Shown here: piece after piece, positions 2,688-58,662 of the stretch
Layout of the letters: each line of letters opens with the position of its first letter
Numbering within the stretch: position 1 is the first letter of the stretch
Assembly (NCBI GenBank): GCA_004321885.1
Contig: SCQK01000014.1
Location: 75,646-139,645 of the forward strand
Source of the DNA: Patescibacteria group bacterium
GTDB taxonomy: Bacteria > Patescibacteriota > Patescibacteriia > Magasanikbacterales > GWA2-37-8
Reading direction: 5' to 3'
Length of the DNA stretch: 64,000 nucleotides
Notes under the pieces: generated by a model
The model's database searches: none
What the model was told of the DNA's origin: nothing
What the model saw: the letters and a program-made list of their open reading frames with translations, nothing else
Made by a program: the position numbers and the translations under genes

Positions 2688-4502
2688 ATGACCGACACTC
2701 AAGCCATCAAAGACCGGCTGGATATTGTGCAAATCATCGGCGAATATCTGCAGTTGAAAAAAGCCGGGGCCAACTGGAAGGCCAACTGCCCATTTCATCA
2801 GGAGAAAACCCCGTCTTTTATGGTGCACCCGGAAAAGCAGATATTTCATTGCTTTGGCTGCGGCAAAGGCGGGGATGTTTTTACCTTTGTGCAGGAAATG
2901 GAAGGGTTTGATTTTCCCGAAGCCCTGAAATTTTTGGCTGACCGCGCCGGGGTGAAGATAGACACGTATCGCAGTGAAATAGACAAAAGCCAGCGCAACC
3001 GGATTTTGGAAATCAACAACAAGGCCGCGTATTTTTTTCATCATTTTTTACTGGAAATGCCCGGGGCGCAAAAGGCCCGCGATTATTTAACGGAAAGAAA
3101 ATTAAAACCCGAAACAATAGAAGAATGGCAGGTGGGCTTTGTGCCTGACCAGTGGGACTTGCTTACGCAATATTTATTAAAAAAAGGATTTGGCATAGAT
3201 GATTTGGTTTTAGCGGGGTTGACCATAAAAAGAGAAGGGGCCAGCTTGTACTCGGGCAAGGGTTTTTACGACCGTTTTCGCGGTCGCATCATGTTTCCCA
3301 TTTGGGACGCGCACGATAATGTCGTCGGTTTTACGGGCAGGATTTTGGTGGAAACCGAACATTCCGGCGGCAAGTACGTCAATACTCCCCAAACCCTGGT
3401 TTATGATAAGTCACGCGTGCTTTACGGCATAAACAAGGCCAAACAAGAAATAAAAGCCAAAGATTTGGCTGTGCTAGTGGAAGGACAAATGGACGTCATC
3501 GCTTGCCATCAGGCCGGCATGAAAAATGTCTTCGCGGTTTCGGGCACGGCCCTGACTGCGGAGCAGATAAAATTAATAAAGCGATACACCAACAACGCGG
3601 CCTTTGCTTTTGACGTGGACGCGGCCGGGCAAAACGCGGCCAAGCGAGGGATAGACGCGGCCATAGAACAAGGCTTGAACACAAAAATTGTTCAACTACC
3701 CGAAGGCGCCGGCAAAGACGCGGATGAGTGTATAAAAGCAAATTCACAAATTTGGTTCAAGGCTGTGGAACAAGCCAAGGATGTGATGCAATGGCTGTTT
3801 GAAAAAAATTTGGCCGGGGTGGATATAGTCGACCCCAAGCAAAAACAGAGAGCCGGGCACAATTTACTCATAGAAATCAGCCGTTTGCCTTATGCTTTGG
3901 AACGCGACCATTGGCTAAAAGTATTGGCTGAGCGCCTGCGTGTGGACGAGGAAGTATTGAGAGAAGAAATGAAGAGCGCGGCCAAAGACGCGGCCAAAGA
4001 AGACAGGCGCGGCGGTTCCCCTCCCATTGATAAGAAGAGGGATGGGGAGGGGTCTGTGAACACATTAGTTGTTCAAACCCGCTATGACCTGCTCCTGCAG
4101 AATCTGTGGGCTTTGCTTCTTAAATACCCCTCGCTCATTAGCGCGTTTTGGAGCTCGCTGAAAGAGGACTATTTTTCCGGCACAGGGTTTGGATTGCTTT
4201 ACGATTTGGCGAAAAAGAGGTATAATACCGGCAGTGTGTCGCCCGAGGATTTGAGGGCTGATTTTGGCAACCAAGAGCAAAATTTTATTGATGTTTTATT
4301 GCTCAAGGCAGACACCATTTATGGCGATTACAAAGAGAGTGAGAGCGCGAAAGAAATTGAATTGATTTTGGCCGAGTTAAATAAAAGCTGGGTGAAAAAC
4401 AAGCGTGAACAGCTGATGGAAAAATTGAAAGAAGCGCAAAAAAACGGGGATTTGGGCGAGGTTAAAGATATTTTGTATAAAATTATTGAGTTAAACGAAT
4501 AA
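2688..4502 (+). CDS. dnaG: DNA primase
   Basis: Zinc-ribbon CPFHQEKTPSF...HCFGCGKGGDVFTFV followed by a TOPRIM region (EGQMDVIACHQAG). The ORF opens at 2643, but the ATG at 2688 (MTDTQAIKDRL) avoids overlap with the upstream gene. Confidence 0.9.
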   Translation: MTDTQAIKDRLDIVQIIGEYLQLKKAGANWKANCPFHQEKTPSFMVHPEKQIFHCFGCGKGGDVFTFVQEMEGFDFPEALKFLADRAGVKIDTYRSEIDKSQRNRILEINNKAAYFFHHFLLEMPGAQKARDYLTERKLKPETIEEWQVGFVPDQWDLLTQYLLKKGFGIDDLVLAGLTIKREGASLYSGKGFYDRFRGRIMFPIWDAHDNVVGFTGRILVETEHSGGKYVNTPQTLVYDKSRVLYGINKAKQEIKAKDLAVLVEGQMDVIACHQAGMKNVFAVSGTALTAEQIKLIKRYTNNAAFAFDVDAAGQNAAKRGIDAAIEQGLNTKIVQLPEGAGKDADECIKANSQIWFKAVEQAKDVMQWLFEKNLAGVDIVDPKQKQRAGHNLLIEISRLPYALERDHWLKVLAERLRVDEEVLREEMKSAAKDAAKEDRRGGSPPIDKKRDGEGSVNTLVVQTRYDLLLQNLWALLLKYPSLISAFWSSLKEDYFSGTGFGLLYDLAKKRYNTGSVSPEDLRADFGNQEQNFIDVLLLKADTIYGDYKESESAKEIELILAELNKSWVKNKREQLMEKLKEAQKNGDLGEVKDILYKIIELNE

Positions 4503-7531: not shown

Positions 7532-8611
7532 ATGAAAATAATGTTTTCCGGCGGGGGGACTTTGGGGCCGGTGACGCCGCTTTTGGCGGTGCACGAGATT
7601 TATCGCCGCCGCAATCCGGGGGCGAAATTTGTGTGGGTGGGCACAAAGCGCGGCCCAGAGAAAAAAATTTTGGAAAAATATAACATAGTTTTTTACGCGG
7701 TCACATCGTGCAAGTGGCGCCGCTATTTTTCTTTGCGCAACATCATAGACGCGATTAAATTCGGCGTTGCTTTTTTCCAGTGTTTGATTTTGCTGTGGAT
7801 AGAAACGCCCGACCTGCTTGTTTCCGCCGGCGGGTTCGTGAGCGTGCCTTTGCATTGGGCCGGCGCCCTGCTGGGCATACCGGCCTGGGTTCATCAGCAA
7901 GACCCGAGCGTGGGATTGGCCAACAAATTGAACGCGCGTTTTGCCAAGAAAATTACCACGGCCCTGCGCGACACCGCGCGATTTTTTCCCGAGAAAAAAA
8001 CCGAATGGCTGGGCAACCCGGTGCGCGACCTGACAGTGGGCGATGCGCAAGCGGCGCGCGGGCGTTTGGGTTTGCCGCTGACCGGCCCGGTTATTTTTGC
8101 CTTGGGCGGCGGCACCGGGGCCTCAAAATTAAACGAGCTGGTGTTGCAATCCTTGGCTTCTCTGCCCAAGGATTGGCAGGTCATTCATCTGCTCGGCGAC
8201 AGACCCATGGAAATGGCCGAGCGGGCCGCGCAGACATTTACCAATTACCATCCGCGCCAATTTTTTACTCACGAGATGAAAGACGCCTACGCGGCGGCTG
8301 ATGTGGTTATCGCGCGCGCCGGTTTTGGCACCATCAGCGAGCTGGCGGCCCTGGGCAAGGCCGCGGTCATAATTCCTATGCCCGGCTCGCATCAGGAAGA
8401 AAACGCGAAATTGCTTTCAGCCAACAAAGCGGCCATCGTGCTCCGCGAAGAAACAGCTAACGGAATGAAGCTGGCGCATATCGTGGATGAGATTGCGCGC
8501 TATCCGGAATTCAAAGATTATCTCGGCAACCGCTTGCGCTCTATTTTACCGCCGGCTAGGCCCGAGAGGGTCGTGGAAATTATTGAAGAACTTACAGAAT
8601 CAAAGAAATAA
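7532..8611 (+). CDS. murG: undecaprenyldiphospho-muramoylpentapeptide beta-N-acetylglucosaminyltransferase
   Basis: N-terminal MFSGGGTLGPVTPLLAV (the G-loop of GT28) and a C-terminal UDP-GlcNAc-binding region (GGGTGASKLN...ARAGFGTISE). Confidence 0.85.
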   Translation: MKIMFSGGGTLGPVTPLLAVHEIYRRRNPGAKFVWVGTKRGPEKKILEKYNIVFYAVTSCKWRRYFSLRNIIDAIKFGVAFFQCLILLWIETPDLLVSAGGFVSVPLHWAGALLGIPAWVHQQDPSVGLANKLNARFAKKITTALRDTARFFPEKKTEWLGNPVRDLTVGDAQAARGRLGLPLTGPVIFALGGGTGASKLNELVLQSLASLPKDWQVIHLLGDRPMEMAERAAQTFTNYHPRQFFTHEMKDAYAAADVVIARAGFGTISELAALGKAAVIIPMPGSHQEENAKLLSANKAAIVLREETANGMKLAHIVDEIARYPEFKDYLGNRLRSILPPARPERVVEIIEELTESKK

Positions 8612-8654
8612 AAATTTGAACGGTGAATCGCTCGGAGAATTTGGGATTCAATGT

Positions 8655-9986
8655 TCAAATTTTTATTTCTTTGATTTTATTTTGTAAAGTTTGTTTTGAT
8701 TTTACTCGCACCCGCACAAATTCCGGCGTATATCCCGCGAAGTAGCCGGATTTTTTTTGTTCAAACAGTACTGGGCGGGTTTTGCCGGTGAATTTGGCCG
8801 CGAATTTTTTGGCCTCGGCTTTGGAAATTTTGAGCAGTTTTTTTACGCGTTCGGTTTTGATTTTGTCCTGCACTTGGTTTGGCATTTTGGCCGCGGCAGT
8901 GCCAGGGCGCGGAGAAAAAGGGAAAACGTGTATTTTGGCAAAGCCCCCGCCAAAGGCGGGTCCGTCTTGGGCGGACATTTTTTTTACAAACGCGCAGGTC
9001 TCGGTGAATTCTTTTTCGGTCTCGCCCGGGAAGCCGACGATAATGTCGGTGGTAAAAGAAAACAGGGGATTGGCCTGGCGCAGTTTTTGAACAATTCCAA
9101 GATATTGTTTCGCGTTATATCCGCGCCGCATCCGTTTGAGCATTGTGTCCGAGCCCGATTGCAAGGACAAATGCCAATGCGGCATCAATCTGTTTTGTCC
9201 CCCCTTTTTAAGGGGGGAATAAAAGGGGGGTAAGAATAATTTTATTAATTTTTCCGAAATCAGCCGCGGGTCCAGCGAACCGAGCCGGATGCGCTCTATT
9301 TTTGTTTCTCGTAAAATTTTTTTCAGCAGTTCGGCCAAGTCTCCCCCACTGCCAGAGGGGGGGACGAAGGGGGGGTGGGAGCTGTCTTTGTATTGGCAAA
9401 TATTTACTCCGGTCAGTACCGCTTCTTTATAGCCGTCTTTTTCCGCTTCTTTGATTTTTTTTATCACCGCCTCGGATGGCACACTTCGCGTTCGGCCGCG
9501 GAAAGATGGAATAATACAATAGGCGCAGTTAAAATTACAGCCGGTTTGGATTTTGATGAGAGTGCGTGTTCTATCATTGCGTAGCCGAGCGGTCGGATGT
9601 GTTCGTAGCGCCTTATGCCGCCGCAGCGGCATGGCCGAGGCCTCGCGGCCGAGGGAAGCGAGAACACATCCGACCGCTCCTCTGCGAGCTTCGCAATGGC
9701 TCACAACTTCCTCATTCCCTCTCGCCACAAAATCAATCTCGGGCAAATCCTTGTTTTCCAGACAGCCAACCGCGATTACGTACGCCCCGCGCCGTTTGGC
9801 CCGCCGAATCATCTCGCGCGTGGTCTGACTGGCGTCCACGGTCACTCCGCAGGCGCGCACCACGGCTACGTCTTCGTGCGCGCCAAAAAGCACGACAGAA
9901 AAACCTCGCTGTACGAGGTCTTTTTTCAGTTCTTCTGTCTCGGCTTGATTCAATTTGCACCCCAGGGTGTGGAATGAAATTTTCAC
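8655..9986 (-). CDS. radical-SAM methylthiotransferase, MiaB/MtaB/RimO family, carrying three in-frame repeat insertions
   Basis: MKISFHTLGCKLNQAETEEL (UPF0004 domain), the radical-SAM cysteine motif CNFNCAYCIIP, and a C-terminal TRAM-like end. Three GC-rich palindromic segments are inserted in frame. Confidence 0.8.
   Translation of the reverse strand: MKISFHTLGCKLNQAETEELKKDLVQRGFSVVLFGAHEDVAVVRACGVTVDASQTTREMIRRAKRRGAYVIAVGCLENKDLPEIDFVARGNEEVVSHCEARRGAVGCVLASLGREASAMPLRRHKALRTHPTARLRNDRTRTLIKIQTGCNFNCAYCIIPSFRGRTRSVPSEAVIKKIKEAEKDGYKEAVLTGVNICQYKDSSHPPFVPPSGSGGDLAELLKKILRETKIERIRLGSLDPRLISEKLIKLFLPPFYSPLKKGGQNRLMPHWHLSLQSGSDTMLKRMRRGYNAKQYLGIVQKLRQANPLFSFTTDIIVGFPGETEKEFTETCAFVKKMSAQDGPAFGGGFAKIHVFPFSPRPGTAAAKMPNQVQDKIKTERVKKLLKISKAEAKKFAAKFTGKTRPVLFEQKKSGYFAGYTPEFVRVRVKSKQTLQNKIKEIKI
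9196..9236. repeat. family-A GC palindrome (CCCCCCTTTTTAAGGGGGG...AAAAGGGGGG) in frame in the miaB-like gene
   Basis: Translates as PPFYSPLKKGGQ within the ORF. Confidence 0.7.
9336..9382. repeat. family-A element with CCCCC...GGGGGGG arms and a GGGGGGGTGGGAGC tail, in frame in the miaB-like gene
   Basis: Translates as HPPFVPPSGSGGD. The same tail motif recurs at 46831-46843 and 53875-53888. Confidence 0.7.
9585..9678. repeat. 94 bp structured insert inside the miaB-like gene: 18 bp perfect inverted repeat (GAGCGGTCGGATGTGTTC / GAACACATCCGACCGCTC) around a GC-rich 56 bp core
   Basis: Inverted repeat read directly from the sequence. It is translated in frame as EVVSHCEARRGAVGCVLASLGREASAMPLRRHKALRTHPTARL. 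Confidence 0.7.
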
Positions 9987-9987
9987 G

Positions 9988-10632
9988 CTATTCCATTAAA
10001 ATGTAAGACCGAAAGCCGCCTCCATAACTCGATTCCGCGAATTGTTTTACAAAGTCATTCATCACCCTTCTGGTTGGTTCGTCTTTGATGTTTTCGTGCT
10101 GTTTGATCAGGTTGTTCAGCACGAATTTGTCCCTAAAGTCGCCTTTGCTGTTTAGGTTGGTATTGCCTATGTTGTAATGTTCAAAGAAAAATTGGTGGTC
10201 CATCTGGTCTATTATTCTTGCCACTTTCGTCTCGTCCGAATCCCCGTGTTCAAATTCGTTGAACAGTTCCTTGAGTTCGCGTCCATCCGGTTCTTCCAGG
10301 TAGCCGGCCAAAAGCTCCATCGCTTTTTCTCCAATTTTGTTTTTATATTCGGTAAGTTCTGGGTAGCGGCGGTGCAAGGGCGCAGAGATATCACCTCCGA
10401 AAAGTTCACCCAAATCATGCACCAAGAGCATGGACATTATTTTTTCGCCGTCAATTTTTCCGCCCTCCCTCTTTATTTTTTTCAGTAAAAAATAGGCGAT
10501 AATGCAGGCGCCATAATGATGCTCGGCCAGGGTTTCAACCTCGTGCAGGCGGATGCCGCCCAAAAGATAGCCGGTGAGCGGCTGTTCTTTGGTGAGTTGT
10601 AAGATGGAAAAAAGTTTGACGAGATTTTGCAT
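9988..10632 (-). CDS. HD-domain phosphohydrolase (YfbR-like)
   Basis: H...HD motif (AEHHYGACIIAYFLL...LVHDLGELFGGD). Start chosen at the ATG at 10632 (MQNLVKLFS); the longer ORF to 10800 runs through a tRNA-like remnant. Confidence 0.6.
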   Translation of the reverse strand: MQNLVKLFSILQLTKEQPLTGYLLGGIRLHEVETLAEHHYGACIIAYFLLKKIKREGGKIDGEKIMSMLLVHDLGELFGGDISAPLHRRYPELTEYKNKIGEKAMELLAGYLEEPDGRELKELFNEFEHGDSDETKVARIIDQMDHQFFFEHYNIGNTNLNSKGDFRDKFVLNNLIKQHENIKDEPTRRVMNDFVKQFAESSYGGGFRSYILME

Positions 10633-10633
10633 A

Positions 10634-10653
10634 TTTGTGACCCGGCTGGGATT
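10634..10653. repeat. 20 bp direct repeat TTTGTGACCCGGCTGGGATT duplicating the 3' end of tRNA-Lys (second copy at 10826-10845)
   Basis: Exact 20/20 match. The 170 bp between the copies contains a degenerate T-arm-like GGCGTTCGAATCCCACCG. Confidence 0.7.
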
Positions 10654-10828
10654 TGGCCTCGCCTCTCGCTCGCTTCCGCTCGCTCGGGCTGGCCACCGCC
10701 TCGCGGTTTGGCTCGCCCATAAGCTCGCCAAACATCGCTCCGGCGTTCGAATCCCACCGCGAGCAAAACTATTTGCTCGCTGCCGGTTCCCAAAATTCAA
10801 ATCCGCCTAATTGCGGATTTTAATTTTG

Positions 10829-10901
10829 TGACCCGGCTGGGATTCGAACCCAGGACCTCTTCCTTAAAAGGGAATTGCTCTACCAACTGAGCTACCGGGC
10901 C
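10829..10901 (-). tRNA. tRNA-Lys(TTT)
   Basis: On the minus strand: GGCCCGG-TA-GCTCAGTTGGTAGAGC-A-ATTCC-CTTTTAA-GGAAG-AGGTC-CTGGGTTCGAATCCCAG-CCGGGTC-A. Cloverleaf folds, with anticodon loop CU-UUU-AA. Confidence 0.8.
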
Positions 10902-10989
10902 GTCACTTCACTTTTAACTTATTAAATGATATACTAAATTCACAAGAAAATCAAGAGTCTGGCGTCGTTAAGACGCTATATTACGTATT

Positions 10990-14949: not shown

Positions 14950-14990
14950 TTGGAGCGGGATACGAGAATCGAACTCGCATCTCTTGCTTG

Positions 14991-15104
14991 CCCCCACACC
15001 AATAATATTGAGCGGACGATGGGAATCGAACCCACGCCTCAACCTTGGGAAGGTCGCATACTACCATTATACTACGCCCGCGTATCGCACTATTGGTGTG
15101 GGGG
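14991..15104. mobile_element. 114 bp MITE-like element with 14 bp perfect inverted repeats (CCCCCACACCAATA...TATTGGTGTGGGGG) carrying a complete tRNA-Gly(CCC); 4 bp direct duplication CTTG at 14987-14990 and 15105-15108
   Basis: Inverted repeats and flanking duplication read directly. Removing the element plus one duplication copy restores an intact tRNA. Confidence 0.7.
15011..15081 (-). tRNA. tRNA-Gly(CCC), the cargo of the inserted element
   Basis: On the minus strand: GCGGGCG-TA-GTATAATGGTAGTAT-G-CGACC-TTCCCAA-GGTTG-AGGC-GTGGGTTCGATTCCCAT-CGTCCGC-T. Confidence 0.8.
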
Positions 15105-18327: not shown

Positions 18328-20157
18328 TTACTCCCACTCAATAGTTCCGGGTGGTTTGTTGGTGAGGTCGTAGAAGATGAAGTCCACGGCGTTTAGAGCG
18401 TGGATTTTTTTGATGATTTTTTTCAGAGTGGGCGAGGGTATGACGCCAAACGAGACGGTCATCGCTTCTTCTGATTCCACGGGTCGCAGGACAATTGATT
18501 CGCCGTGCTTGTGCCCAAACGGCACGAGCACCGTGGGCATTTGCCAGATTTTTTGGCATTGCTTGTCGGTCAAAATGGCGCTGTCGGCGATGTCATCTAT
18601 TTTTCGCAAAAGGTCCAGCCGTTTTTTGGTAAGATACGCTTTTTTCAGCGTGGCTTTTGGCAATGATTTTTTGTCGCCGGAAACAAGCAGTAGAACGCGG
18701 TTGATGTCTTTGTGGGCGTTGGTGATTTTAGGAGAAAGGGATTGATAATACCCCCACCCGGCCTCCCCCTTATAAAGGGGGAGGGGACCTGTGATAACGG
18801 CGGGGTGGGCGTAGGAGCGCTCGTCGCCTTGCACGCCCACGGATTTGATGGGGAGACGCCAAATTGTTGGCTCCACAGCCCCGACTAAGTCGGGGACTAT
18901 GGAGCCAGCGTCGTTTGATCCTTCCGAGCACAGACAGCGAATGGCCAGGCCCGGGCCCGGAAAGGGATGGCGGTTTATCAATTTTTGCGGCAGACCGAGC
19001 TTAAGGCCGATGGCGCGCACTTCGTCTTTGTACAAATCCTTAATCGGCTCTATGATTTTTCCTTCGGCGATCATTTGTTTTATCCGCGGTACGCGATTGT
19101 GATGCGTTTTTATGACGTCGGCGTTTTTGGTGCCGCCCGATTCAATAGTGTCGGGATAAATGGTGCCTTGGCCGACCAACCATTTGTCTCCGGTCAATTT
19201 TTTTCTACCAGACCCGCCTTTGGCGGGTTCGGCCATTACTTTGTCCACAATATCCAAAAACAAATCGCCGATGATTTTTCTTTTTTGTTCCGGATCAGAC
19301 ACGCCTTTGAGCGCGGATAAAAATTCTTTTTCGGCGTTATACACCCGCAAGTTGTCTCCCAGTCGCTTCAGAGCCGCTATGATTTTTTTTGTCTCATCCA
19401 ACCGCATCAGGCCGCTGTCAATGTGCAAGCCGAAAACCCTTTTTTCGCCAAGCACTTTTCGCAATAGGGCGAAACAAACCGTGGAATCAACGCCGCCGGA
19501 GACGAGCAAGAAAACATTTTTACCGCCCGCTTCCTTTTTTATATTTTTTTCAATTTGATCCAGCATTGTCTCTGTCGTCCAGTTTTTTTCCGCCCCGCAA
19601 ATATTTAAAATAAAATTGGCCAGAATTTTTTTTCCTTCTTTCGTGTGATTTACTTCCGGATGAAACTGAAAGCCGAAGAACTTTTTTGATAAATTTTGCA
19701 TGGCCGCCACCGAACGGTTGCCGGTTGAAGCGATTGGCGTAAAACCGAACGGCAGTTTGTCCACGTGATCGCCGTGGCTCATCCAGACAACGGTATTTTT
19801 ACTTACGCCCGAAAAAATCGGCGAGGCGCTGACGGATAATTTCGCCAAACCGTATTCACGCGCCTTGCCCGATTCAACGCGCCCGCCAAAAAAATCTGCC
19901 ATCAACTGATGCCCGTAGCACAGACCCAAAATCGGCGCGCTGAGCGTAAAAATTTTTTTATCAAAAGGCAAACGCGCGTCGCGCACCAGCGAACGCGGAC
20001 CGCCGGAAAGGATGATTCCACACGCGTTTTTCAATCGTTCGGCTTTGACGTTATTCGGGTAAATACGTGAAATAACGCCCAGTTCGCGCACGCGACGGGC
20101 GATGAGATGGGTGTACTGGGAACCGAAATCAAGGATGGCGATTTCACTTTTTGGCAT
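18328..20157 (-). CDS. guaA: GMP synthase (glutamine-hydrolysing) with a roughly 95 aa in-frame insertion derived from palindromic repeats
   Basis: ILDFGSQYTHLIARRVRELGV (GATase), SGGVDSTVCFALL (PP-loop) and C-terminal KPPGTIEWE are conserved. Start set at the ATG at 20157; the longer ORF to 20532 overlaps the guaB promoter. Confidence 0.85.
   Translation of the reverse strand: MPKSEIAILDFGSQYTHLIARRVRELGVISRIYPNNVKAERLKNACGIILSGGPRSLVRDARLPFDKKIFTLSAPILGLCYGHQLMADFFGGRVESGKAREYGLAKLSVSASPIFSGVSKNTVVWMSHGDHVDKLPFGFTPIASTGNRSVAAMQNLSKKFFGFQFHPEVNHTKEGKKILANFILNICGAEKNWTTETMLDQIEKNIKKEAGGKNVFLLVSGGVDSTVCFALLRKVLGEKRVFGLHIDSGLMRLDETKKIIAALKRLGDNLRVYNAEKEFLSALKGVSDPEQKRKIIGDLFLDIVDKVMAEPAKGGSGRKKLTGDKWLVGQGTIYPDTIESGGTKNADVIKTHHNRVPRIKQMIAEGKIIEPIKDLYKDEVRAIGLKLGLPQKLINRHPFPGPGLAIRCLCSEGSNDAGSIVPDLVGAVEPTIWRLPIKSVGVQGDERSYAHPAVITGPLPLYKGEAGWGYYQSLSPKITNAHKDINRVLLLVSGDKKSLPKATLKKAYLTKKRLDLLRKIDDIADSAILTDKQCQKIWQMPTVLVPFGHKHGESIVLRPVESEEAMTVSFGVIPSPTLKKIIKKIHALNAVDFIFYDLTNKPPGTIEWE
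18750..18786. repeat. family-A palindrome CCTCCCCCTTATAAAGGGGGAGG inside guaA
   Basis: Translated on the minus strand as PLPLYKGEAGW. Confidence 0.7.
18869..18906. repeat. family-C palindrome GGCTCCACAGCCCCGACTAAGTCGGGGACTATGGAGCC inside guaA
   Basis: Translated as AGSIVPDLVGAVEP. A near-identical copy sits at 58028-58065. Confidence 0.7.
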
Positions 20158-23081: not shown

Positions 23082-23807
23082 GTGAAAATATTTATTCGCG
23101 ACGACGCGGACCAAAGCGTGTATAACGAAATTTTTAAGCTGGGCGAATATCGCGCCGCGGACAAAGCCATAAAAAACGCGCGTGAACCCGTTATAGACGT
23201 CGGCGCGCACGCCGGCTTTTTTAGTTTGTATTGCCGCGCGCTCAATCCCCAGGTGAAAATTTTCGCCATTGAACCCGAGCCGGAAAATTTTAAGCAGTTA
23301 CAAAAACACATCGCGGGCAACAATATTAAGGGCGTGGAGCCGGTGCCAGCCGCTTTGGCCGGCGAGACCGGGGAGAGGGAGTTGATAATATCCAAAGACA
23401 ATCATAATCATCGGCTCCGATTACCCCCTCCTCGCCTCCCCCTTATAAAGGGGGAGGACAATTTCCCTCCCCTTGATAAGGGGAGGGCGAGGGAGGGGTA
23501 CTGGGTCGCGGCTTTTTCCTTGGGTGATTTTTGCCGGCGTTATAAAATCAAAAACGTCGCTTTGCTCAAAATGGACATAGAAGGAGGAGAGGAAGAAACG
23601 TTCAAAAGTGCGAGCGCGTCTGATTTGGCTATGGTAAAAAACGTAATTTTGGAGTATCATGGTAATAACTTCGCGCCAATAGAACAAAAATTGCGCGAAA
23701 ACGGTTTTGGAGTACAGAAATTTCCGTCCAAGTTTGATAATAAAATGGGTTTTTTGTTTGCACGCAATAAAAGGTATGTCTCACCAAGCATGGATAGTGG
23801 CGGTTGA
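23082..23807 (+). CDS. FkbM-family methyltransferase with in-frame palindromic insertion
   Basis: VIDVGAHAGFFSL...FAIEPEPENF...LLKMDIEGGEEE is the FkbM signature. The insert is translated as HRLRLPPPRLPLIKGEDNFPPLDKGRAREGYW. GTG start. Confidence 0.55.
   Translation: MKIFIRDDADQSVYNEIFKLGEYRAADKAIKNAREPVIDVGAHAGFFSLYCRALNPQVKIFAIEPEPENFKQLQKHIAGNNIKGVEPVPAALAGETGERELIISKDNHNHRLRLPPPRLPLIKGEDNFPPLDKGRAREGYWVAAFSLGDFCRRYKIKNVALLKMDIEGGEEETFKSASASDLAMVKNVILEYHGNNFAPIEQKLRENGFGVQKFPSKFDNKMGFLFARNKRYVSPSMDSGG
23418..23500. repeat. tandem pair of family-A palindromes (CCTCCCCCTTATAAAGGGGGAGG and CCCTCCCCTTGATAAGGGGAGGG with a CGAGGGAGGGG tail)
   Basis: Lies in frame inside the methyltransferase gene. 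Confidence 0.7.
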
Positions 23808-25101: not shown

Positions 25102-25168
25102 TCGTCAATAGACCCTCTCCTATTAGGAGAGGGATACAGGGTGGGGTTTGTATTAAATAATTTTTTGA

Positions 25169-29034: not shown

Positions 29035-29067
29035 AGTCATTCCCCCGACTTAGTCGGGGGAATCCAG
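29035..29067. repeat. family-B element (CCCCCGACTTAGTCGGGGG core) abutting the start of the 27879-29033 gene
   Basis: agtcattcccccgacttagtcgggggaatccag. Confidence 0.7.
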
Positions 29068-29727: not shown

Positions 29728-29800
29728 TCTCCCCTTTACAAGGGGGAGGCTTGTCACCACACCAAAAATTTTGGTGTGGTGACAGAGAGGGGGTAATCCT
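29728..29800. repeat. nested palindromes: family-A CCCCTTTACAAGGGGGAGG, then CACCACACCAAAAATTTTGGTGTGGTG (an empty inverted-repeat pair of the tRNA-Gly element family), then AGAGAGGGGG
   Basis: Read directly in the intergenic region between the LRR gene and the SHOCT gene. Confidence 0.65.
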
Positions 29801-38928: not shown

Positions 38929-38955
38929 CAATAAAAATATTTTTTAATAAATAAA

Positions 38956-38988
38956 CTGGATTTTCCCGACTTAGTCGGGGGAATGACA
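38956..38988. repeat. family-B element (inverted orientation) ctggattttcccgacttagtcgggggaatgaca, ending 5 nt before the ATG of the M4 peptidase gene
   Basis: Read directly. Confidence 0.7.
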
Positions 38989-38993
38989 AGTGT

Positions 38994-41870
38994 ATGCCTA
39001 AGAGAAAAAAGAGGGATAGACGCGTAAGGTACGCGTTTTTGGCGATAGTTTTGTGTTTGGCCGCGGGCGGTGCCGGCGCGGCCGTGTATTTAACATCAAA
39101 GGCCAGTTCGGCGAATTTTAGCGCGCAAATTTACGGCGCGGTTTCGCCGCGATTAAACGTTATAGACGTGGATTTTTTGCGCGACAATAATTTGAAGTTC
39201 ACGCAGGACAAAAAAACCAATTTCGTGCGCTCGCTTTCGGCCCTGGGCCAGCCCATTCCTTTAAGCAAAGGAAATTTGGTCAGCGACTTGGCGGTCAGCA
39301 ATCAATTTTTGAAAGACTACGCGCGCTTTTTCGGAGTGGGCGACAGCAAACAACTCATACTGCATTCGTCCAAGAAAGACGAGCTGGGGCTAAGTCACAT
39401 AAAATACCAGCAAAAAATCGGCGGGGTGCCGGTGTTTGGCGCACAGATGCTGGTGCACGTAAAAGAGGACCTGTCCGTCAATTCAGCGGCCGGCAAACTA
39501 TTGGCCAATGTTTCCATCAATACCAATCCCAAAATCACGGGGCGCGCGGCCGGCGACGCGGTGAAGCGTTCGTGGCAAAAGAGCGACAAGGCGCCCAAAG
39601 TTTCGGCGGGCAAGCTGTATATTTTCAACAAGAACCTTTTGGACGCTCGGTTTGAAAATAAAAATCATCTAACCTGGGAGATAAAGGCCGTGGACGCGGA
39701 TTCGGGCTTTTCCGAAACCTATTACATAGACGCAACCAGCGGAGCAATTTTGCAGAAAATTTCCAATGTCAAACAGATTAGCCGTCGGATTTTTAATTGC
39801 GGCAACAATCGCAACCGTACTACCTGCCGAAACATGCTGGGCGCCGCGGCCAGCCGGGCGCAAAACGACCGGGCCGAGGGCTGGGCCGCCGCGGGCGTGG
39901 CCGAGGTTGACAACGTCTATCAAATGATGAACCAGGCGCATAATTATTTTCAAAACACCTTTGGCATAGACGGCGCCAACGGCCGCGACGGCATTGGCGA
40001 CAACACCGACGGCCATCCGCGCACCTCCACCGACGTTTATGCTGATTGGCTTATCCCCGCCAGCTGGGGTTTTAATTGTCCCAATTCTTTCTTTTTCGAA
40101 AACAAGCTGATGTTCTGCAACAACACGGTCAATCTGCCGGTGGTGGGACACGAATACATGCACGGCGTGGCGCACTTCAACGGCCCGCCCCTCACTTACG
40201 CCTACGAGTCCGGCGCCATTGAAGAGGCCAATGCCGACATCTTTGGCCAGGCCCTGGAAAATGCCGTGACCGGCTCTTCCAGCTGGCGCATCGGCCCCAC
40301 TGGCGGAAATCTGTGGCGCAATATCGTCAATCCCGCTTCGCTCAATGACCCGGACCGGTTTTACAGCAACAATTTTTATTGCGGAGATAATGACGAGGGC
40401 GGGGTGCACAACAATTCCAATGTCATTTCACACGCCGCGTATTTGCTTGCCACCGGCGGCAGTTTCAACGGCTGTTCCATAGACAGCATCGGCCAAAACA
40501 GAATGGAAAGAATTTTCTACCGCGCCCTGACAGTTTACCTCACGGCCAGTTCGGATTTCAATGATTTGTACGACGCGCTGGACAATGCCTGCGGCGACCT
40601 GTATTCCGACGCGATTTGCGCGCAAGTGCGCCGCGCCTTGCAGGCCGCGGAAATAGACCAGCCCGGGCGATGCAGCGGCACAGCGGCCGCGCCCAAGCCA
40701 ACCTGTTTTCCGCCGTATATTCTTTCGGTGTCGGCGAATGCCGGGCATTATCGGGCCAATCAAAGTATTACATTGAGGTTTAAGTTTTCCAAGCCCGTGC
40801 GCACGGCCGGCGCCGTGGATGTGTTCGCGGTCTTAAACGGCCGCACGGCCGAAAAAATTTGCTCCCTTGATTTGAGCTCGCGCGCCGACGACGTGTCATG
40901 CTCGTTTAAGGTAAATGACGGCGACAGCGGCCGTCTGCGCGTGGACAGAATTGAGTGGGATGTCAAGAGGCCGATTTTGGACGCTGATTCAAGCGAGCTT
41001 ACCGATATGGTGCCGGCCGAGCAGTTTCCCAAGGGCGACGTGATTATAGACACCGCCAAGCCAACCGGAAGCGTTACCATCAATAGCGGGGCTAAAACCA
41101 CGGCCAGCCATATAGTGGAGCTGGCGCTAAGTTCAAACGACGACAAAGCCGGGTTGCTATACCGCGTTTCCAACAACGGCGTCAGTTACAGCCGTTGGGA
41201 TGATTTTGCGGCAACGACGTCGTGGAATTTGTACAACGCGGACGCGGGCGGCGGGGTGTTTCCCACCACCAACAGTGGATATCCGCGCACGGTTTATGTT
41301 CAGTTCAAAGACCAGGCCGGCAATGTTTCCGACACGTATTCGGCCAATATCACCTTTAGCCGGCTGACGATTTTAATAGAAGAGCCGGCGCAACTTGCGG
41401 TTCCAACTTCATCACAGCCGAATGGCGCGAATCTCCTACTCAATATTCCCCCCAGCGCCCTGACCATCCCCGGCGTCAATGTTACAGTTACGCAGACAAG
41501 CGCGGTGGTTCTGCCGCAGATTTCCACGACCACTGTCAATTTGAATCCGGCGATTTCTTCTTCGCTTATTGATGTTGTCAGTGTTCCGGATTTCACGATT
41601 TCCGTAAAGCAGGGCGGGCTGACAACATATTTGAGCGGCGCCATAAATTATTGGGGCAAGGGGGCAAAATGCGAGGGCCCGCGAACTTATGACGCGGTAG
41701 TAGCGAACTGGGGCGATGGCGCATCAGCCAAGCCCGCGCGCAAGGATAAAACATTCTATGCTTCGCATACTTACGCCAAGACCTTTGGCTCGTACAAGAT
41801 TTTGGTAAAGGTTTACAACAGTTGCGGTGGCAGCGCGAGCAAATCTTTGTACGTAAAGCCGCAGATATAA
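38994..41870 (+). CDS. secreted thermolysin-like (M4) zinc metallopeptidase with long C-terminal extension
   Basis: HEXXH in VVGHEYMHGVAHF, the downstream Glu in GAIEEANADIFG, and GGVHNNSNVISHAAYLLATGG (M4 C-terminal domain). 958 aa, and the C-terminal third is repetitive. Confidence 0.75.
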   Translation: MPKRKKRDRRVRYAFLAIVLCLAAGGAGAAVYLTSKASSANFSAQIYGAVSPRLNVIDVDFLRDNNLKFTQDKKTNFVRSLSALGQPIPLSKGNLVSDLAVSNQFLKDYARFFGVGDSKQLILHSSKKDELGLSHIKYQQKIGGVPVFGAQMLVHVKEDLSVNSAAGKLLANVSINTNPKITGRAAGDAVKRSWQKSDKAPKVSAGKLYIFNKNLLDARFENKNHLTWEIKAVDADSGFSETYYIDATSGAILQKISNVKQISRRIFNCGNNRNRTTCRNMLGAAASRAQNDRAEGWAAAGVAEVDNVYQMMNQAHNYFQNTFGIDGANGRDGIGDNTDGHPRTSTDVYADWLIPASWGFNCPNSFFFENKLMFCNNTVNLPVVGHEYMHGVAHFNGPPLTYAYESGAIEEANADIFGQALENAVTGSSSWRIGPTGGNLWRNIVNPASLNDPDRFYSNNFYCGDNDEGGVHNNSNVISHAAYLLATGGSFNGCSIDSIGQNRMERIFYRALTVYLTASSDFNDLYDALDNACGDLYSDAICAQVRRALQAAEIDQPGRCSGTAAAPKPTCFPPYILSVSANAGHYRANQSITLRFKFSKPVRTAGAVDVFAVLNGRTAEKICSLDLSSRADDVSCSFKVNDGDSGRLRVDRIEWDVKRPILDADSSELTDMVPAEQFPKGDVIIDTAKPTGSVTINSGAKTTASHIVELALSSNDDKAGLLYRVSNNGVSYSRWDDFAATTSWNLYNADAGGGVFPTTNSGYPRTVYVQFKDQAGNVSDTYSANITFSRLTILIEEPAQLAVPTSSQPNGANLLLNIPPSALTIPGVNVTVTQTSAVVLPQISTTTVNLNPAISSSLIDVVSVPDFTISVKQGGLTTYLSGAINYWGKGAKCEGPRTYDAVVANWGDGASAKPARKDKTFYASHTYAKTFGSYKILVKVYNSCGGSASKSLYVKPQI

Positions 41871-41981
41871 CGAGTAAAAAAACAAGGCCTTGGGATAATC
41901 CCCAAGGCCTTTTGGTTGTGCCTGCCCGTGGCAGGCAGGGGCCGCCCCGCGTGAAGAAGCGGGGCGGCCATGAGGCGCTGG

Positions 41982-42674
41982 TCAGGTACAACCCGGGATC
42001 GGGTTGTTTTTGCACCCGATGCTGGGAATGCACTCGTTGGTGGTGCAGGCATTCCCATCATCGCAGAAGTCCGGACAAGAGCCGCAACTTCCGGCGATAC
42101 TGGTCCAGGTGCAAAATCCGTTGACGCACCCGACTTGGGTACACCCCACGTAGTAGTTGACGCATGGGGTCGTCGGGAGCGAACAAGCGACCTTGGCGCA
42201 AGCGCCTGACACACAGTGCAGCCCCTTGTTACAGAAGCTGTTGTTGCCGCTACACTTGCCGCTGGGCAGGCAGTTGTAGCACCGCGCGCCCTCGGAGCCC
42301 TGGGCCGGCTGGACATCGGGCTTGACCACGATGCTGTCCGGCGGCGGTTTCTTGTCTGGCGCCGGCTTGTCCGGCAGTGGCTTAGTGTCGTGCGTCGGCT
42401 TGGTGTCTGGCGTGCCCTTGTCCGGGCCAAGGTCCGCGCCCAGCTCGCGGCCTGCTTCACGCTTCGGCGTGAACGCGTCAGCCGCCATGTCGGGCATGCC
42501 GCCCTCCACGCTGGCTGCGCTGTCTTGCCAGCTGTCAGCGACAGCGGCGTCAATGCCGCTGTCCAGCCGGTTCTTGTCGGCCTGGGCGTCCACCGACGCC
42601 GCCGGGTTGTAGCCAAAGAGCAGGTGGCACCCGCCGGCGCCCAGCGCCAGCATTGCGATGAAAAGAGCCTTCAT
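41982..42674 (-). CDS. cysteine-rich secreted protein / putative lipoprotein in a high-GC patch
   Basis: Signal peptide MKALFIAMLALGAGGC, a P/K/D-rich linker (DTKPTHDTKPLPDKPAPDKKPPPD) and a C-terminal domain with at least 20 Cys. Chosen over the overlapping R-rich ORFs on the other frames. Confidence 0.4.
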   Translation of the reverse strand: MKALFIAMLALGAGGCHLLFGYNPAASVDAQADKNRLDSGIDAAVADSWQDSAASVEGGMPDMAADAFTPKREAGRELGADLGPDKGTPDTKPTHDTKPLPDKPAPDKKPPPDSIVVKPDVQPAQGSEGARCYNCLPSGKCSGNNSFCNKGLHCVSGACAKVACSLPTTPCVNYYVGCTQVGCVNGFCTWTSIAGSCGSCPDFCDDGNACTTNECIPSIGCKNNPIPGCT

Positions 42675-43448: not shown

Positions 43449-43537
43449 TGATACCCCTCCCTTTAACCCTCCCCTTAATAAGGGGAGGGAGGGGTGGGGT
43501 TTGCTTTTTTAGGTTCGCGAGTATATTATAAAAATGT

Positions 43538-46508: not shown

Positions 46509-47063
46509 TTAGAGCCTGTCCCGAACTTGTTTCGGGAGGGAGGATAGAGGAGGGAGTATGTGTATTTTTCTCTTGTTCCCTCCCGCGTATTCAATTCTGA
46601 CGGTTATTATTTTCGGCCCTTGGCCGATATTTTTCAAAAGCTCTTTTATTTTCTCCGGCCACTCAATCGCGCAAATCGTATCCGGCCTGCCCAAATAATC
46701 CAGCGCGCCGATTTCCACAAGTTCGTGCTCATTTTTTAGCCGGTAGGTATCTATATGGACGAATTTTTGTGTCCCCCTGCCCCCACACCAAAATTTTTGG
46801 TGTGGGGGCCTGCCCGAGGGGGACTTTGAGGGGGGTGGGAGCAAGTACACATTCATCAACGCGAACGTCGGACTGGTAATTTTTTCTTTGACGCCCAAGC
46901 CGGCGGCAATGCCTTTCACCAATGCAGTTTTGCCCGCGCCCAGTTCGCCGTAAAGCAATAAAATATCGCCGCCGCGCAATTTTCGCGCCAAAGCCGCGCC
47001 AAACGCAAATGTTTCTTTTTCGTTTTTCGTGATAATTTTTTGATTGTTTTGACGGGTTGACAT
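46509..47063 (-). CDS. tsaE: tRNA threonylcarbamoyladenosine biosynthesis protein TsaE with a 23 aa in-frame palindromic insertion
   Basis: LLYGELGAGKTALVKGIAAGLG...SPTFALMNVY...HIDTYRL. Start at MSTRQNN; the ORF extends upstream to 47138. The insert LLPPPSKSPSGRPPHQKFWCGGRGTQ lies between the two conserved blocks. Confidence 0.7.
   Translation of the reverse strand: MSTRQNNQKIITKNEKETFAFGAALARKLRGGDILLLYGELGAGKTALVKGIAAGLGVKEKITSPTFALMNVYLLPPPSKSPSGRPPHQKFWCGGRGTQKFVHIDTYRLKNEHELVEIGALDYLGRPDTICAIEWPEKIKELLKNIGQGPKIITVRIEYAGGNKRKIHILPPLSSLPKQVRDRL
46771..46843. repeat. composite palindromic insert: outer GTCCCCCTG...CGAGGGGGAC, enclosing CCCCCACACCAAAATTTTTGGTGTGGGGG, plus a GAGGGGGGTGGGAGC tail
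   Basis: The inner palindrome equals the two 14 bp inverted repeats of the tRNA-Gly-carrying element joined head to head. The outer part matches the grpE insert at 53838-53888. Confidence 0.7.
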
Positions 47064-52879: not shown

Positions 52880-52913
52880 CTGGATTCCCCCGTACTTAGT
52901 CGGGGGAATGACA
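52880..52913. repeat. family-B element (inverted) ctggattcccccgtacttagtcgggggaatgaca ending 12 nt before the hrcA ATG
   Basis: Read directly. Confidence 0.7.
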
Positions 52914-53614: not shown

Positions 53615-54121
53615 ATGGCTGAAGAAGAAAAAAAAGAGATAGAGGAAAAGGAAGAGGGAGCGCCTTGTGAAAAGTGTGAAGAGCACAAAGCCAATTGGAA
53701 GAGGGCGTTGGCCGATTACAAGAATTTGCAAAACGAGATCGCCCGATGCAAATCAGATTGGGCGAAAATGAGCGAGGCGCAGATTTTGCAGGAGTTTATT
53801 CCGGTGTATGATAATCTGAAACGGGGGCTGGCGGTTTCTCTCCCCCTGCTCGAGGGGGAGAAGCCCGAAGAACAGAGGGGGTGGGAGCAGTTGAAACAGG
53901 GGATAGAGTACGTGAAAAAGCAATTTGGAGAGGTCTTGAAAGCGCACGGAGTGGAGGAAATAAAAACCATCGGCGAACAGTTTGACCCGCGTTGGCACGA
54001 AGCCGTGGGCGAGGAAGAAGCCGATGGCGCCGAGGCGGGCGCGATTGTTCGCGAGGTGGATTCGGGATATAAAGTGGGCGACAGGGTCATAAAACCGGCG
54101 AAAGTAATCGTGGCGAAATAG
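53615..54121 (+). CDS. grpE: nucleotide exchange factor GrpE with in-frame palindromic insert
   Basis: WKRALADYKNLQNE...EFIPVYDNLKRGLAV...VLKAHGVEEI...VREVDSGYKVGDRVIKPAKV. The insert SLPLLEGEKPEEQRGWEQ is encoded by the palindrome at 53838-53888. Confidence 0.8.
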   Translation: MAEEEKKEIEEKEEGAPCEKCEEHKANWKRALADYKNLQNEIARCKSDWAKMSEAQILQEFIPVYDNLKRGLAVSLPLLEGEKPEEQRGWEQLKQGIEYVKKQFGEVLKAHGVEEIKTIGEQFDPRWHEAVGEEEADGAEAGAIVREVDSGYKVGDRVIKPAKVIVAK

Positions 54122-54228: not shown

Positions 54229-54323
54229 TAAAGAAAAAAGAAAATAAATTTTCTCCCTTAATTAGGGGGAGAACGCCAAACAGTTCCCTCCCCTAAAAGG
54301 GGAGGGTGTAAAACAATGAAATT

Positions 54324-57977: not shown

Positions 57978-58113
57978 GGCTCCATAGTTGCGAAGCACTA
58001 TGGAGCTCAAATGTTGGTCAGCAATTCGGCTCCACAGCCCCGACTGGGTCGGGGACTATGGAGCCAGCCATAGGATAACACTGGATTCCCCCGACTAAGT
58101 CGGGGGAATGACA
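57978..58113. repeat. array of three palindromic elements (a C-type with alternative core at 57978-58006, a C-type at 58028-58065, and a B-type at 58081-58113) filling the dnaJ / ECF sigma intergenic region
   Basis: Read directly. The B-type ends 2 nt before the ATG at 58116. Confidence 0.7.
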
Positions 58114-58613: not shown

Positions 58614-58662
58614 ATACCCCTCCCGCGCCCTCCCCTTAAAAAAGGGGAGGGGCAAACTAAAT

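Follow-up and report, generated by a model that had tools for sequence, protein, structure and literature searches.

Palindromic repeats in frame within an intact mtaB gene of a Patescibacteria group bacterium and their probable origin from dispersed families

Rickettsia palindromic elements (RPEs; Ogata et al. 2000 in Science and 2002 in Genome Research) are described in PMC10969869 as palindromic repeats of about 100–150 bp that occur both between genes and in frame within unrelated housekeeping genes, where they are translated and compatible with the protein fold; several families are present in a reduced genome. We analyzed a 64,000-nt stretch of DNA from a Patescibacteria group bacterium (GenBank assembly GCA_004321885.1, contig SCQK01000014.1, positions 75,646 to 139,645 of the forward strand; hereafter, the window), in which a gene predicted to encode the radical-SAM methylthiotransferase MtaB stays open through four inserts. 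As with RPEs, palindromic repeats occur here in frame in conserved genes, including mtaB, at fold-compatible positions. However, the host belongs to Patescibacteria, and three of the four mtaB inserts are 30–43 nt long, with insert 1 reaching ~124 nt. In addition, the mtaB loops hold different elements across many species, and one family, with termini of the type GTCATTGCGAG, spans phyla. By analogy, the mtaB repeats appear to be closest to RPEs in behavior but, judging from host and size, are probably not RPE members; membership by sequence is not expected, because the best protein matches place the host in Patescibacteria. An initial annotation of this DNA had noted the likeness to RPEs, and this stands as a description of how the repeats work rather than of what they belong to. 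Full-text literature searches turned up no account of elements of this kind from Patescibacteria, or the Candidate Phyla Radiation (CPR).

Small dispersed repeats (SDRs), which occur in Nostoc as well as in other cyanobacteria and were reportedly described by Elhai et al. in 2008 (Genome Research), are said to be mobile, non-coding, hairpin-forming sequences of ~20–40 nt. They lie between genes and at times inside them with the frame kept open, and many are nested in other repeats. Compared by description only, they resemble the present repeats in being very short hairpins found both in intergenic DNA and in frame, but their sequences and their host are different. Among miniature transposable elements with inverted repeats (MITEs), QMITE1 and QMITE2 of Coxiella are non-autonomous, carry terminal inverted repeats and can extend or interrupt open reading frames (ORFs) in frame, mostly at gene ends or in hypothetical genes (PMC5896051); ERIC and BOX elements have been grouped with MITEs that give in-frame fusions (PMC10969869). 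Insert 1 has terminal inverted repeats and the size of a MITE; however, the mtaB inserts lie in internal loops of a conserved enzyme, and insert 1 has neither a visible target-site duplication nor a second copy in the window. Multiple copies are present for the families of inserts 2–4. No parent insertion sequence of insert 1 was seen, 7 of the ~70 ORFs in the window having been scanned against protein families.

REP and REPIN sequences are short, high-copy, GC-rich imperfect palindromes with compensated stems; they are extragenic, carry a GTAG or CGTC head and are mobilized by RAYT transposases (PMC3116915, which also cites the SDR work of Elhai et al., and PMC3733652). The family described below as the C/G family is likewise a short GC-rich palindrome with compensatory changes in its stem, which fits recognition of hairpins in single-stranded DNA. 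In contrast to REP and REPIN, no GTAG or CGTC head stands by the stem in any of its eight aligned copies, and more than half of its copies lie within genes; the missing tetranucleotide head and the intragenic copies rule out membership. In mitochondrial genes of Nematomorpha, long perfect inverted repeats occur within functional coding genes and are translated, with both arms encoding conserved parts of the protein (PMC6649704), whereas the mtaB palindromes are added loop material that is absent from orthologues.

The mtaB gene and its four inserts

The host gene of the inserts is a minus-strand ORF (8655–9986) that begins with a GTG start codon and encodes 443 amino acids (aa). MtaB generates ms2t6A on tRNA. 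The ORF product scores 377.5 bits against the NCBIfam MtaB equivalog TIGR01579 (cut-off, 357.05 bits), with residues 5–443 aligned to profile positions 1–416, and it scores under both cut-offs for the MiaB and RimO equivalogs. Pfam analysis identified a UPF0004 domain (residues 2–83) and a Radical_SAM domain (residues 144–333). The three cysteines of UPF0004 and the radical-SAM CxxxCxxC motif are both present, and the six Fe-S cluster cysteines (C10, C46, C75, C150, C154 and C157) are invariant in an alignment of 29 sequences. There was no Pfam match to a TRAM domain at E ≤ 0.01; the C-terminal part of the AlphaFold2 model is all-beta, with strands between residues 403 and 442. This model, which was built on the orthologue alignment, has a mean predicted local distance difference test score (pLDDT) of 87 and a predicted template-modeling score (pTM) of 0.85. 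Its best fold matches are MtaB and MiaB, on which the entire chain can be superposed with template-modeling (TM) scores of 0.75–0.81; RimO is also among the fold matches. The closest database relatives, at ~60% identity, come from metagenome-assembled genomes (MAGs) of Patescibacteria or “Magasanikbacteria” and are typically 393–400 aa long. An independent per-run assembly (Logan, SRR8426592) contains a 4,440-nt contig that is 100% identical to the sequence analyzed here.

Based on the equivalog score, the invariant cysteines and the identical independent contig, mtaB is neither a pseudogene nor a chimera of a single assembly, and we conclude that the ORF is an intact mtaB. The unbroken frame with all catalytic residues intact rules out a pseudogene, and the occurrence of a like pattern in many independent MAGs, together with the identical contig, rules out an assembly artefact.

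Between mtaB and a convergent murG-like gene (7532–8611) lies an AT-rich 32-nt inverted repeat (8598–8676; 94% complementary), the right arm of which overlaps the final mtaB codons; its probable role is that of a bidirectional terminator. The mtaB frame of one Magasanikbacteria MAG (CAWDHY010000001.1; locus L019, 3001–3732) stops after 243 codons, which may reflect a frameshift or a pseudogene.

The initial annotation had reported three in-frame insertions in a miaB/mtaB-like gene. All three are present and in frame, and the gene is mtaB; the count, however, is four, as an insert at 8946–8975 had been missed. We number the inserts in the direction of the gene. Insert 1 (9575–9698, minus strand) is a nested hairpin of ~124 nt that encodes residues ~97–138 (HCEARRGAVGCVLASLGREASAMPLRRHKALRTHPTARLRND) in the linker between the UPF0004 and radical-SAM domains. 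It had been annotated as a 94-bp hairpin at 9585–9678 with perfect 18-bp arms; the arms are indeed perfect, albeit displaced by 1–2 nt (9587–9604 and 9662–9679), and the whole element is longer. The inner arms reach 25 nt at 88% complementarity (9580–9604 and 9662–9686), and an outer arm pair, CATTGCGTAGC and GCTTCGCAATG (9575–9585 and 9688–9698), forms terminal inverted repeats. The termini read CATTGCGA...TCGCAATG (...CGCAATG) or, in fuller form, (G)CCATTGCGAAGC...GCTACGCAATGA(T). Folded as single-stranded DNA, insert 1 reaches -46 kcal/mol (z = -6.4), a stability that is matched by none of 200 shuffles. In the MtaB of the window (hereafter, the query), the linker is 42 aa long, and ~41 of these residues come from insert 1. 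The element is approximately the whole linker, as it also is in several orthologues; in the query and in these orthologues, the native linker of ~21 aa has effectively been replaced by the element.

The three remaining inserts are smaller and are likewise read from the minus strand. Insert 2 (~9340–9382; residues ~203–214, with the reverse-strand reading SHPPFVPPSGSG) consists of a degenerate C arm, a loop, a G arm, a spacer and a G run. The sequence had been correctly given in the initial annotation as a CCCCC...GGGGGGG element at 9336–9382 (CTCCCCC..GGGGGGG-ACGAA-GGGGGGGTGGGAGC); its hairpin is degenerate, yet it can be aligned with copies of a repeat family found in the window and shares 81% identity with insert 3 across 21 nt (family D2). 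Insert 3 (9195–9236; residues ~252–264, read as PPFYSPLKKGGQ) has the sequence CCCCCC-TTTTTAA-GGGGGG-AATAAAA-GGGGGG and a perfect stem. At 9196–9236, where an element had already been placed, it comprises CCCCCCTTTTTAAGGGGGG plus a second G run, and its fold has z = -2.1. Insert 4 (8946–8975; residues 338–347, SAQDGPAFGG) contains two small hairpins, CCCGCCAAAGGCGGG and GTCCGTCTTGGGCGGAC. The G+C content of the inserts is 65–75%, except for insert 3 (49%), compared with 48% in the remaining gene. The junction peptides encoded at the inserts include LFLPPFYSPLK, GGQNRLMPHWHLSLQSGSDTMLK and MSAQDGPAFGGGFAK.

Known structures of other kinds were considered for the inserts and rejected. In Rfam searches, only tRNAs reached the gathering score in the window, and nothing credible appeared in 8600–10950 at E ≤ 5; the inserts thus match no curated RNA family, introns and other known structured RNAs included. 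No minus-strand terminator-like site was found at any of the four inserts, the sole overlap (8960–8976) being antisense, and no T tract follows the sense-strand hairpins, on which ground a sense-strand intrinsic terminator was rejected. Inteins were rejected because the inserts are only 10–21 aa long. To our knowledge, no intein is that small.

We compared loop lengths among 119 sequences, comprising the query and 118 Patescibacteria orthologues of at least 370 aa each; sites 1–4 denote the positions of inserts 1–4. At site 1, the mode is 21–22 aa, compared with 42 in the query. At site 2, 93 of the 119 sequences have the modal length of 6 aa, compared with 17 in the query, and at site 3, the mode is 4–6 aa, compared with 15. 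Site 4 measures 2 aa in 118 of the 119 sequences and 12 aa in the query, in which alone insert 4 occurs. The gain over the modal lengths is about +20, +11, +10 and +10 residues at sites 1–4, rather than the 13–30 residues per insert that had been estimated earlier. In MtaB/MiaB-type proteins of 12 other phyla, sites 2, 3 and 4 measure 4–9, 5 and 2–3 residues, respectively, the one exception being a Dokdonia protein whose site-2 loop is long. Alignment to MiaB (PDB 7MJV) with phmmer gave 10-residue gaps at sites 3 and 4. Judged from these alignments, the inserts are derived additions of about 10–21 residues. Because the segments are absent from most orthologues and, at sites 2–4, from distant phyla, they lack the homologous counterparts in distant taxa that the initial annotation had named as the mark of ancestral sequence.

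In the AlphaFold2 model, pLDDT falls below 50 only at residues 119–134, 208–213 and 257–261, and residues 341–350 (insert 4) have a mean pLDDT of 65. These four low-pLDDT stretches are the four inserts, and all of them are coil between regular secondary-structure elements. The placement of the insertions by the initial annotation, in the linker from UPF0004 to the radical-SAM domain and inside the radical-SAM domain, is borne out. The places of insertion are the domain linker and three loops of the radical-SAM domain.

Repeat families in the window and in orthologues

Perfect GC-rich hairpins with a stem of 8 bp or more number 30 in the window, compared with a mean of 4.05 (range, 1–6) in 20 dinucleotide-preserving shuffles. 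Inserts 2–4 are members of families of short GC-rich palindromes of which the window holds more copies, some of them intergenic and some in frame. The C/G family follows a plan of C arm, AT-rich loop, G arm, 3–7-nt spacer, second G run and TA, with the consensus CCCTCCCC-TTnATAA-GGGGAGGG-CGA-GGGAGGGG-TA. It has ~10 copies, six or more of which lie within ORFs. We aligned eight of these (alignment A2), namely inserts 2 and 3, the copies beginning at 43467 and 58615, one copy in guaA, two in a methyltransferase gene and one in dnaG. Across the alignment, 91% of stem cells are paired and 4 of the 10 pairs vary on both sides; none of 500 shuffles matches the covariation score. The alignment thus shows a family in which the hairpin itself is what is preserved. 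In most C/G copies (e.g., 23465–23497 and 43467–43499), the G arm and the second G run supply four G tracts (GGGGAGGGCGAGGGAGGGG); on paper, these form a canonical G-quadruplex motif, which would compete with the hairpin.

In-frame repeats are not special to mtaB, as the window also has them in guaA, dnaG and grpE and in a gene for a methyltransferase. The guaA gene (18328–20145), which encodes GMP synthase, contains three in-frame hairpin repeats, all read from the minus strand, and two of them have near-identical copies elsewhere in the window. A C/G family copy (18749–18784; PLPLYKGEAGWGY; family D3) is 92% identical over 36 nt to a copy in the methyltransferase gene (23422–23457) and falls at a gap in the alignment with human GMP synthase. 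The second repeat (18869–18909; GGCTCCACAGCCCCGACTAAGTCGGGGACTATGGAGCC; family D15) is 95% identical to an intergenic copy (58028–58068), and it lies in a stretch of guaA (residues 408–429) that does not align with the human protein. The third (19210–19227; AEPAKGGSG) is a copy of the insert-4 hairpin, matching it at 17 of 18 positions where 0.11 matches are expected by chance; with respect to its host gene it is oppositely oriented, and it coincides with an 8-residue gap in the human alignment.

On the plus strand, an ORF for an FkbM-type methyltransferase contains two adjacent C/G copies in frame (23422–23497; LPPPRLPLIKGEDNFPPLDKGRAREG), dnaG contains a degenerate C/G copy in frame (4019–4051; SPPIDKKRDGEG) and grpE contains a related hairpin in frame (53839–53861; TCTCCCCCTGCTCGAGGGGGAGA, SLPLLEGEK). 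Intergenic C/G copies or hairpins of the same type occur at 43467–43499 and 58615–58651, both of which are in A2, and at 25113–25133 and 54286–54306. The window holds 11 intragenic copies (the four mtaB inserts and seven others), every one of which is a stop-free multiple of three in the frame of its host gene; some of their alternative frames contain stops. The repeats are read in either orientation, with C runs giving Pro, G runs giving Gly and the AT-rich loop giving Leu, Lys, Tyr, Ile or Asp; a typical reading is P-L-x-K-G.

Within the 399 core columns of the alignment of 119 MtaB sequences, internal insertions of at least 6 aa are confined to five places: site 1 (27 sequences), site 2 (20), site 3 (16), site 4 (1, the query) and a place near residue 410 (3). 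Occupancy of the sites is patchy across a neighbor-joining tree of the core alignment. In P0004, the sister of the query, all three of the first sites are filled, but site 1 holds another element type. The site-1 peptides of ~30 orthologues fall into discrete types (VIARS.ATKQS...ARND; CHCE...RFARND; VILS.AKD...KQVQDD / CAQND; HAELVSAS(...KQVQDD)), and the element peptides occur in two different reading frames (VIAR... and HCE...). We assessed hairpin folding of orthologue inserts only where DNA was at hand; most of the longer ones fold as GC-rich hairpins, including those at site 2 of L005, L007 and L012, at sites 1–3 of L037 and L038 and at site 3 of L039. Examples are CTCCCCCTTGTTAAGGGGGAG and GTCATCC...CAGAATGAC. 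The short AT-rich extras at site 3 of L007 and L011 do not fold as hairpins. Sites 1–3 are recurrent permissive sites that are not peculiar to one lineage. The suggestion that alignment would reveal lineage-specific loop insertions therefore holds in part: the inserts are absent from most of the 119 sequences, but the same three loops are filled by other elements in many orthologues.

The termini of insert 1 resemble those of GTCATTGCGAG...CTCGCAATGAC nested hairpins in the same linker of orthologues L001, L008, L038 and L039. In L001, the linker contains a perfect nested hairpin (GTCATTGCGAGGAGCGGAGCGACGAAGCAATC...GATTGCTTCGTCGC...GCTCCTCGCAATGAC), of which the linkers of L008, L038 and L039 contain variants; that of L012 contains GTCATTCTGAAC...GCTCAGGATGAC. 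The orthologue elements have a 15-nt perfect terminal pair, GTCATTGCGAGGAGC / GCTCCTCGCAATGAC. The L001-type element also occurs between genes on plasmids of Methylosinus, Methylocystis, Halomonas, Aulosira and Calothrix, with up to 97% identity over 32 nt. For example, the nested hairpin GTCATTGCGAGGAGCGAAGCGACGAAGCAATC...GATTGCTTCGC...GCTCGCAATGAC of the L001 family is intergenic on plasmid pOB3b1 of Methylosinus trichosporium OB3b (L065, 301–380) and on a plasmid of Aulosira laxa (L066, 305–375). Because it is also intergenic on alphaproteobacterial and cyanobacterial plasmids, the L001-type element represents a cross-phylum hairpin-repeat family. We found no name for the GTCATTGCGAG hairpin family in the literature when searching with DNA strings, which matched only unrelated primers, or with typical peptide strings.

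Origin of the inserts

Our preferred reading of the hairpins, their family relatives, the derived status and loop position of the inserts and the intact catalytic core has, in our estimate, a probability of roughly 70%. It holds that mtaB was colonized by four repeat elements from at least three dispersed palindromic repeat families of this genome, and that these are selfish repeats that would be kept in coding DNA only where they preserve the frame, bring in no stop codon and lie in a permissive loop. Elements would land, or arise, throughout the genome, spreading by transposition-like or hairpin-dependent copying. Because the stem changes are compensatory, the copying process probably recognizes the DNA hairpin. 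Purifying selection would remove intragenic copies that break the frame, add a stop or disturb the fold. Surviving copies would be transcribed and translated together with the host gene, giving short disordered surface loops that are rich in Pro, Gly, Arg and Ala, along with charged residues, and that leave the enzyme core intact; such inserts would be neutral or nearly so. The different hairpin elements at the same three MtaB loops in relatives would be found there because the same filter acts in related species.

Several results weigh against colonization by such repeats. The insertion events themselves are inferred from sequence comparison rather than seen directly, because no target-site duplication was seen and no filled/empty pair of near-identical genomes was found. 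The junctions of insert 1 and of the L001, L008, L012, Methylosinus and Aulosira elements, whose borders are approximate, show no duplication, and no filled/empty-site alleles were found among members of orthologue clusters at 90% identity, in which length differences reflect alternative start-codon calls. Insert 1 is also single in the 64-kb window. Its 18-nt arm had 25 matches in metagenome contigs, all of which were single-arm chance matches in unrelated genes (e.g., to kinase motifs), and a protein search with the 50-aa insert-1 peptide returned no candidate. In the absence of a second copy and of arm or peptide relatives, its termini alone suggest that insert 1 is mobile. In ~100 kb of flanking sequence around orthologous mtaB genes, GTCAT...ATGAC elements were found in the mtaB linker only, which could reflect old vertical inheritance or site-specific targeting rather than random insertion followed by filtering. 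Common descent, rather than independent insertion, may explain the resemblance between the site-2 inserts of the query and P0001 and that among the query, P0004 and P0078 at site 3. Lastly, insert 2 taken by itself has no significant hairpin (z = +0.95).

Some of these points would be accounted for if the loops had expanded once in an early Magasanikbacteria-like ancestor, were inherited vertically and then diverged and were repeatedly lost, as palindromes delete easily. We regard this as unlikely. Insertions at the same three positions in many orthologues are consistent with such a history, as are the S-H-(P/H)-P shared by the site-2 inserts of the query and P0001, the length of exactly 17 aa at this site in six orthologues and the query, and the shared architecture, frame and flanking ACA at site 3 in the query, P0004 and P0078; that no GTCAT...ATGAC element was seen in the sequence flanking orthologous loci fits as well. 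However, the loops are short in most orthologues and, at sites 2–4, in the 12 outgroup phyla, and occupancy of the tree is patchy. Site 1 holds discrete element types in two frames, the sisters query and P0004 differ in type, and the same element types are intergenic in other phyla. In addition, insert 4 occurs only in the query, and the short repeats have copies with 92–95% identity elsewhere in the genome, which therefore did not arise by vertical decay in place. The same copies bear on local generation without a mobile element, whereby template switching or snap-back synthesis would create palindromes and Pro/Gly low-complexity loops would mimic a family. Each copy is a near-perfect palindrome, yet the copies differ at paired positions, as local generation would predict; no transposase, target duplication or second insert-1 copy was found, with protein families searched in 7 of the ~70 window ORFs. 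We nevertheless consider this origin quite improbable, since the A2 copies share a non-palindromic trailing spacer and a second G run ending in TA, stretches of 36–41 nt are 92–95% identical at distant loci and termini are conserved across phyla, none of which is expected from local generation.

Two further explanations, both of which we hold to be very improbable, concern the fate or function of the hairpins in the cell. RNA processing or translational bypassing of the GC-rich hairpins would leave the inserts absent from the mature protein. Mitochondrial “byp” elements of the yeast Magnusiomyces are an example of translational bypassing, CPR bacteria have intervening sequences in their rRNA genes, and insert 1 is a stable hairpin in mRNA. 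The main argument on the other side is that all 11 intragenic copies in the window are stop-free multiples of three although some alternative frames contain stops, because neither splicing nor bypass needs this; moreover, there is no match to an intron or other RNA family, and the segments are far too short for inteins. The inserts might instead be selected nucleic-acid signals, such as internal attenuators, RNase sites, protein-binding sites or G-quadruplex or hairpin DNA sites. Stems kept by two-sided changes among copies, the arms of insert 1 that are perfect over 18 bp although coding and the four G tracts in most copies would all suit such a role, but compensatory change is equally expected under a copying machinery that recognizes hairpins. 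The copies also lie in both orientations relative to their host genes, most orthologues have no inserts, and the inserts have neither a T tract after sense-strand hairpins nor a terminator-like site on the gene strand.

A broader proposal, which we find possible but doubtful, is that the inserts are products of an undescribed hairpin-recognizing DNA copying system with elements, such as the GTCATTGCGAG...CTCGCAATGAC nested hairpin, shared by Alphaproteobacteria, Cyanobacteria and Patescibacteria, in which hairpins are actively maintained, the same loops are targeted or retained and new disordered loops are generally supplied to CPR proteins. Active maintenance would account for stems that are perfect, for compensatory changes and for an element having replaced the native MtaB linker, and in CPR genomes, which are streamlined and have hardly any intergenic space, elements would persist mainly in protein loops.

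Under the reading that we prefer, colonization by selfish repeats, RPE-like behavior would now extend to the CPR with far smaller elements of several families, at least five conserved genes would be affected in a 64-kb stretch, and identical loop positions in one protein would have been refilled repeatedly from species to species. Should this hold generally, it would account for some of the unusual variation in length, and some of the low-complexity loops, seen in CPR proteins, caution annotators and structure predictors that such loops are repeat-derived and provide a natural map of insertion-tolerant sites in radical-SAM methylthiotransferases. The link to the unnamed cross-phylum GTCATTGCGAG hairpin family adds interest, and this family merits a census.

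Additional palindromes and a tRNA-end duplication

The window contains a separate repeat family, ATTCCCCCGACTTAGTCGGGGGAAT, with an 11-bp stem and four intergenic copies (29039–29063, 38955–38989, 52884–52909 and 58085–58109); a shorter relative lies within guaA. Just downstream of a 972-codon open frame (38955–41870), four consecutive perfect GC-rich hairpins with stems of 8–11 bp occupy 41884–42007. Another palindrome family, (T)GCCCCCACACCAAAA-TTTTGGTGTGGGGGC, is represented at 46779–46809, 14989–15010 and 29752–29784; one stem is perfect over 14 bp, and one copy abuts a tRNA-Gly gene.

The 3′ end of a tRNA-Lys gene (10828–10901, minus strand), AATCCCAGCCGGGTCACAAA, is repeated ~190 nt downstream at 10636–10655, directly before the ATG of an HD-domain gene. 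The GC-rich DNA between the two copies (10636–10846) has a very stable fold (z = -8) and includes a T-arm-like sequence, GGCGTTCGAATCCCACC, on the opposite strand; the region looks like an att-type duplication from a small integrated element or a tRNA-derived remnant.

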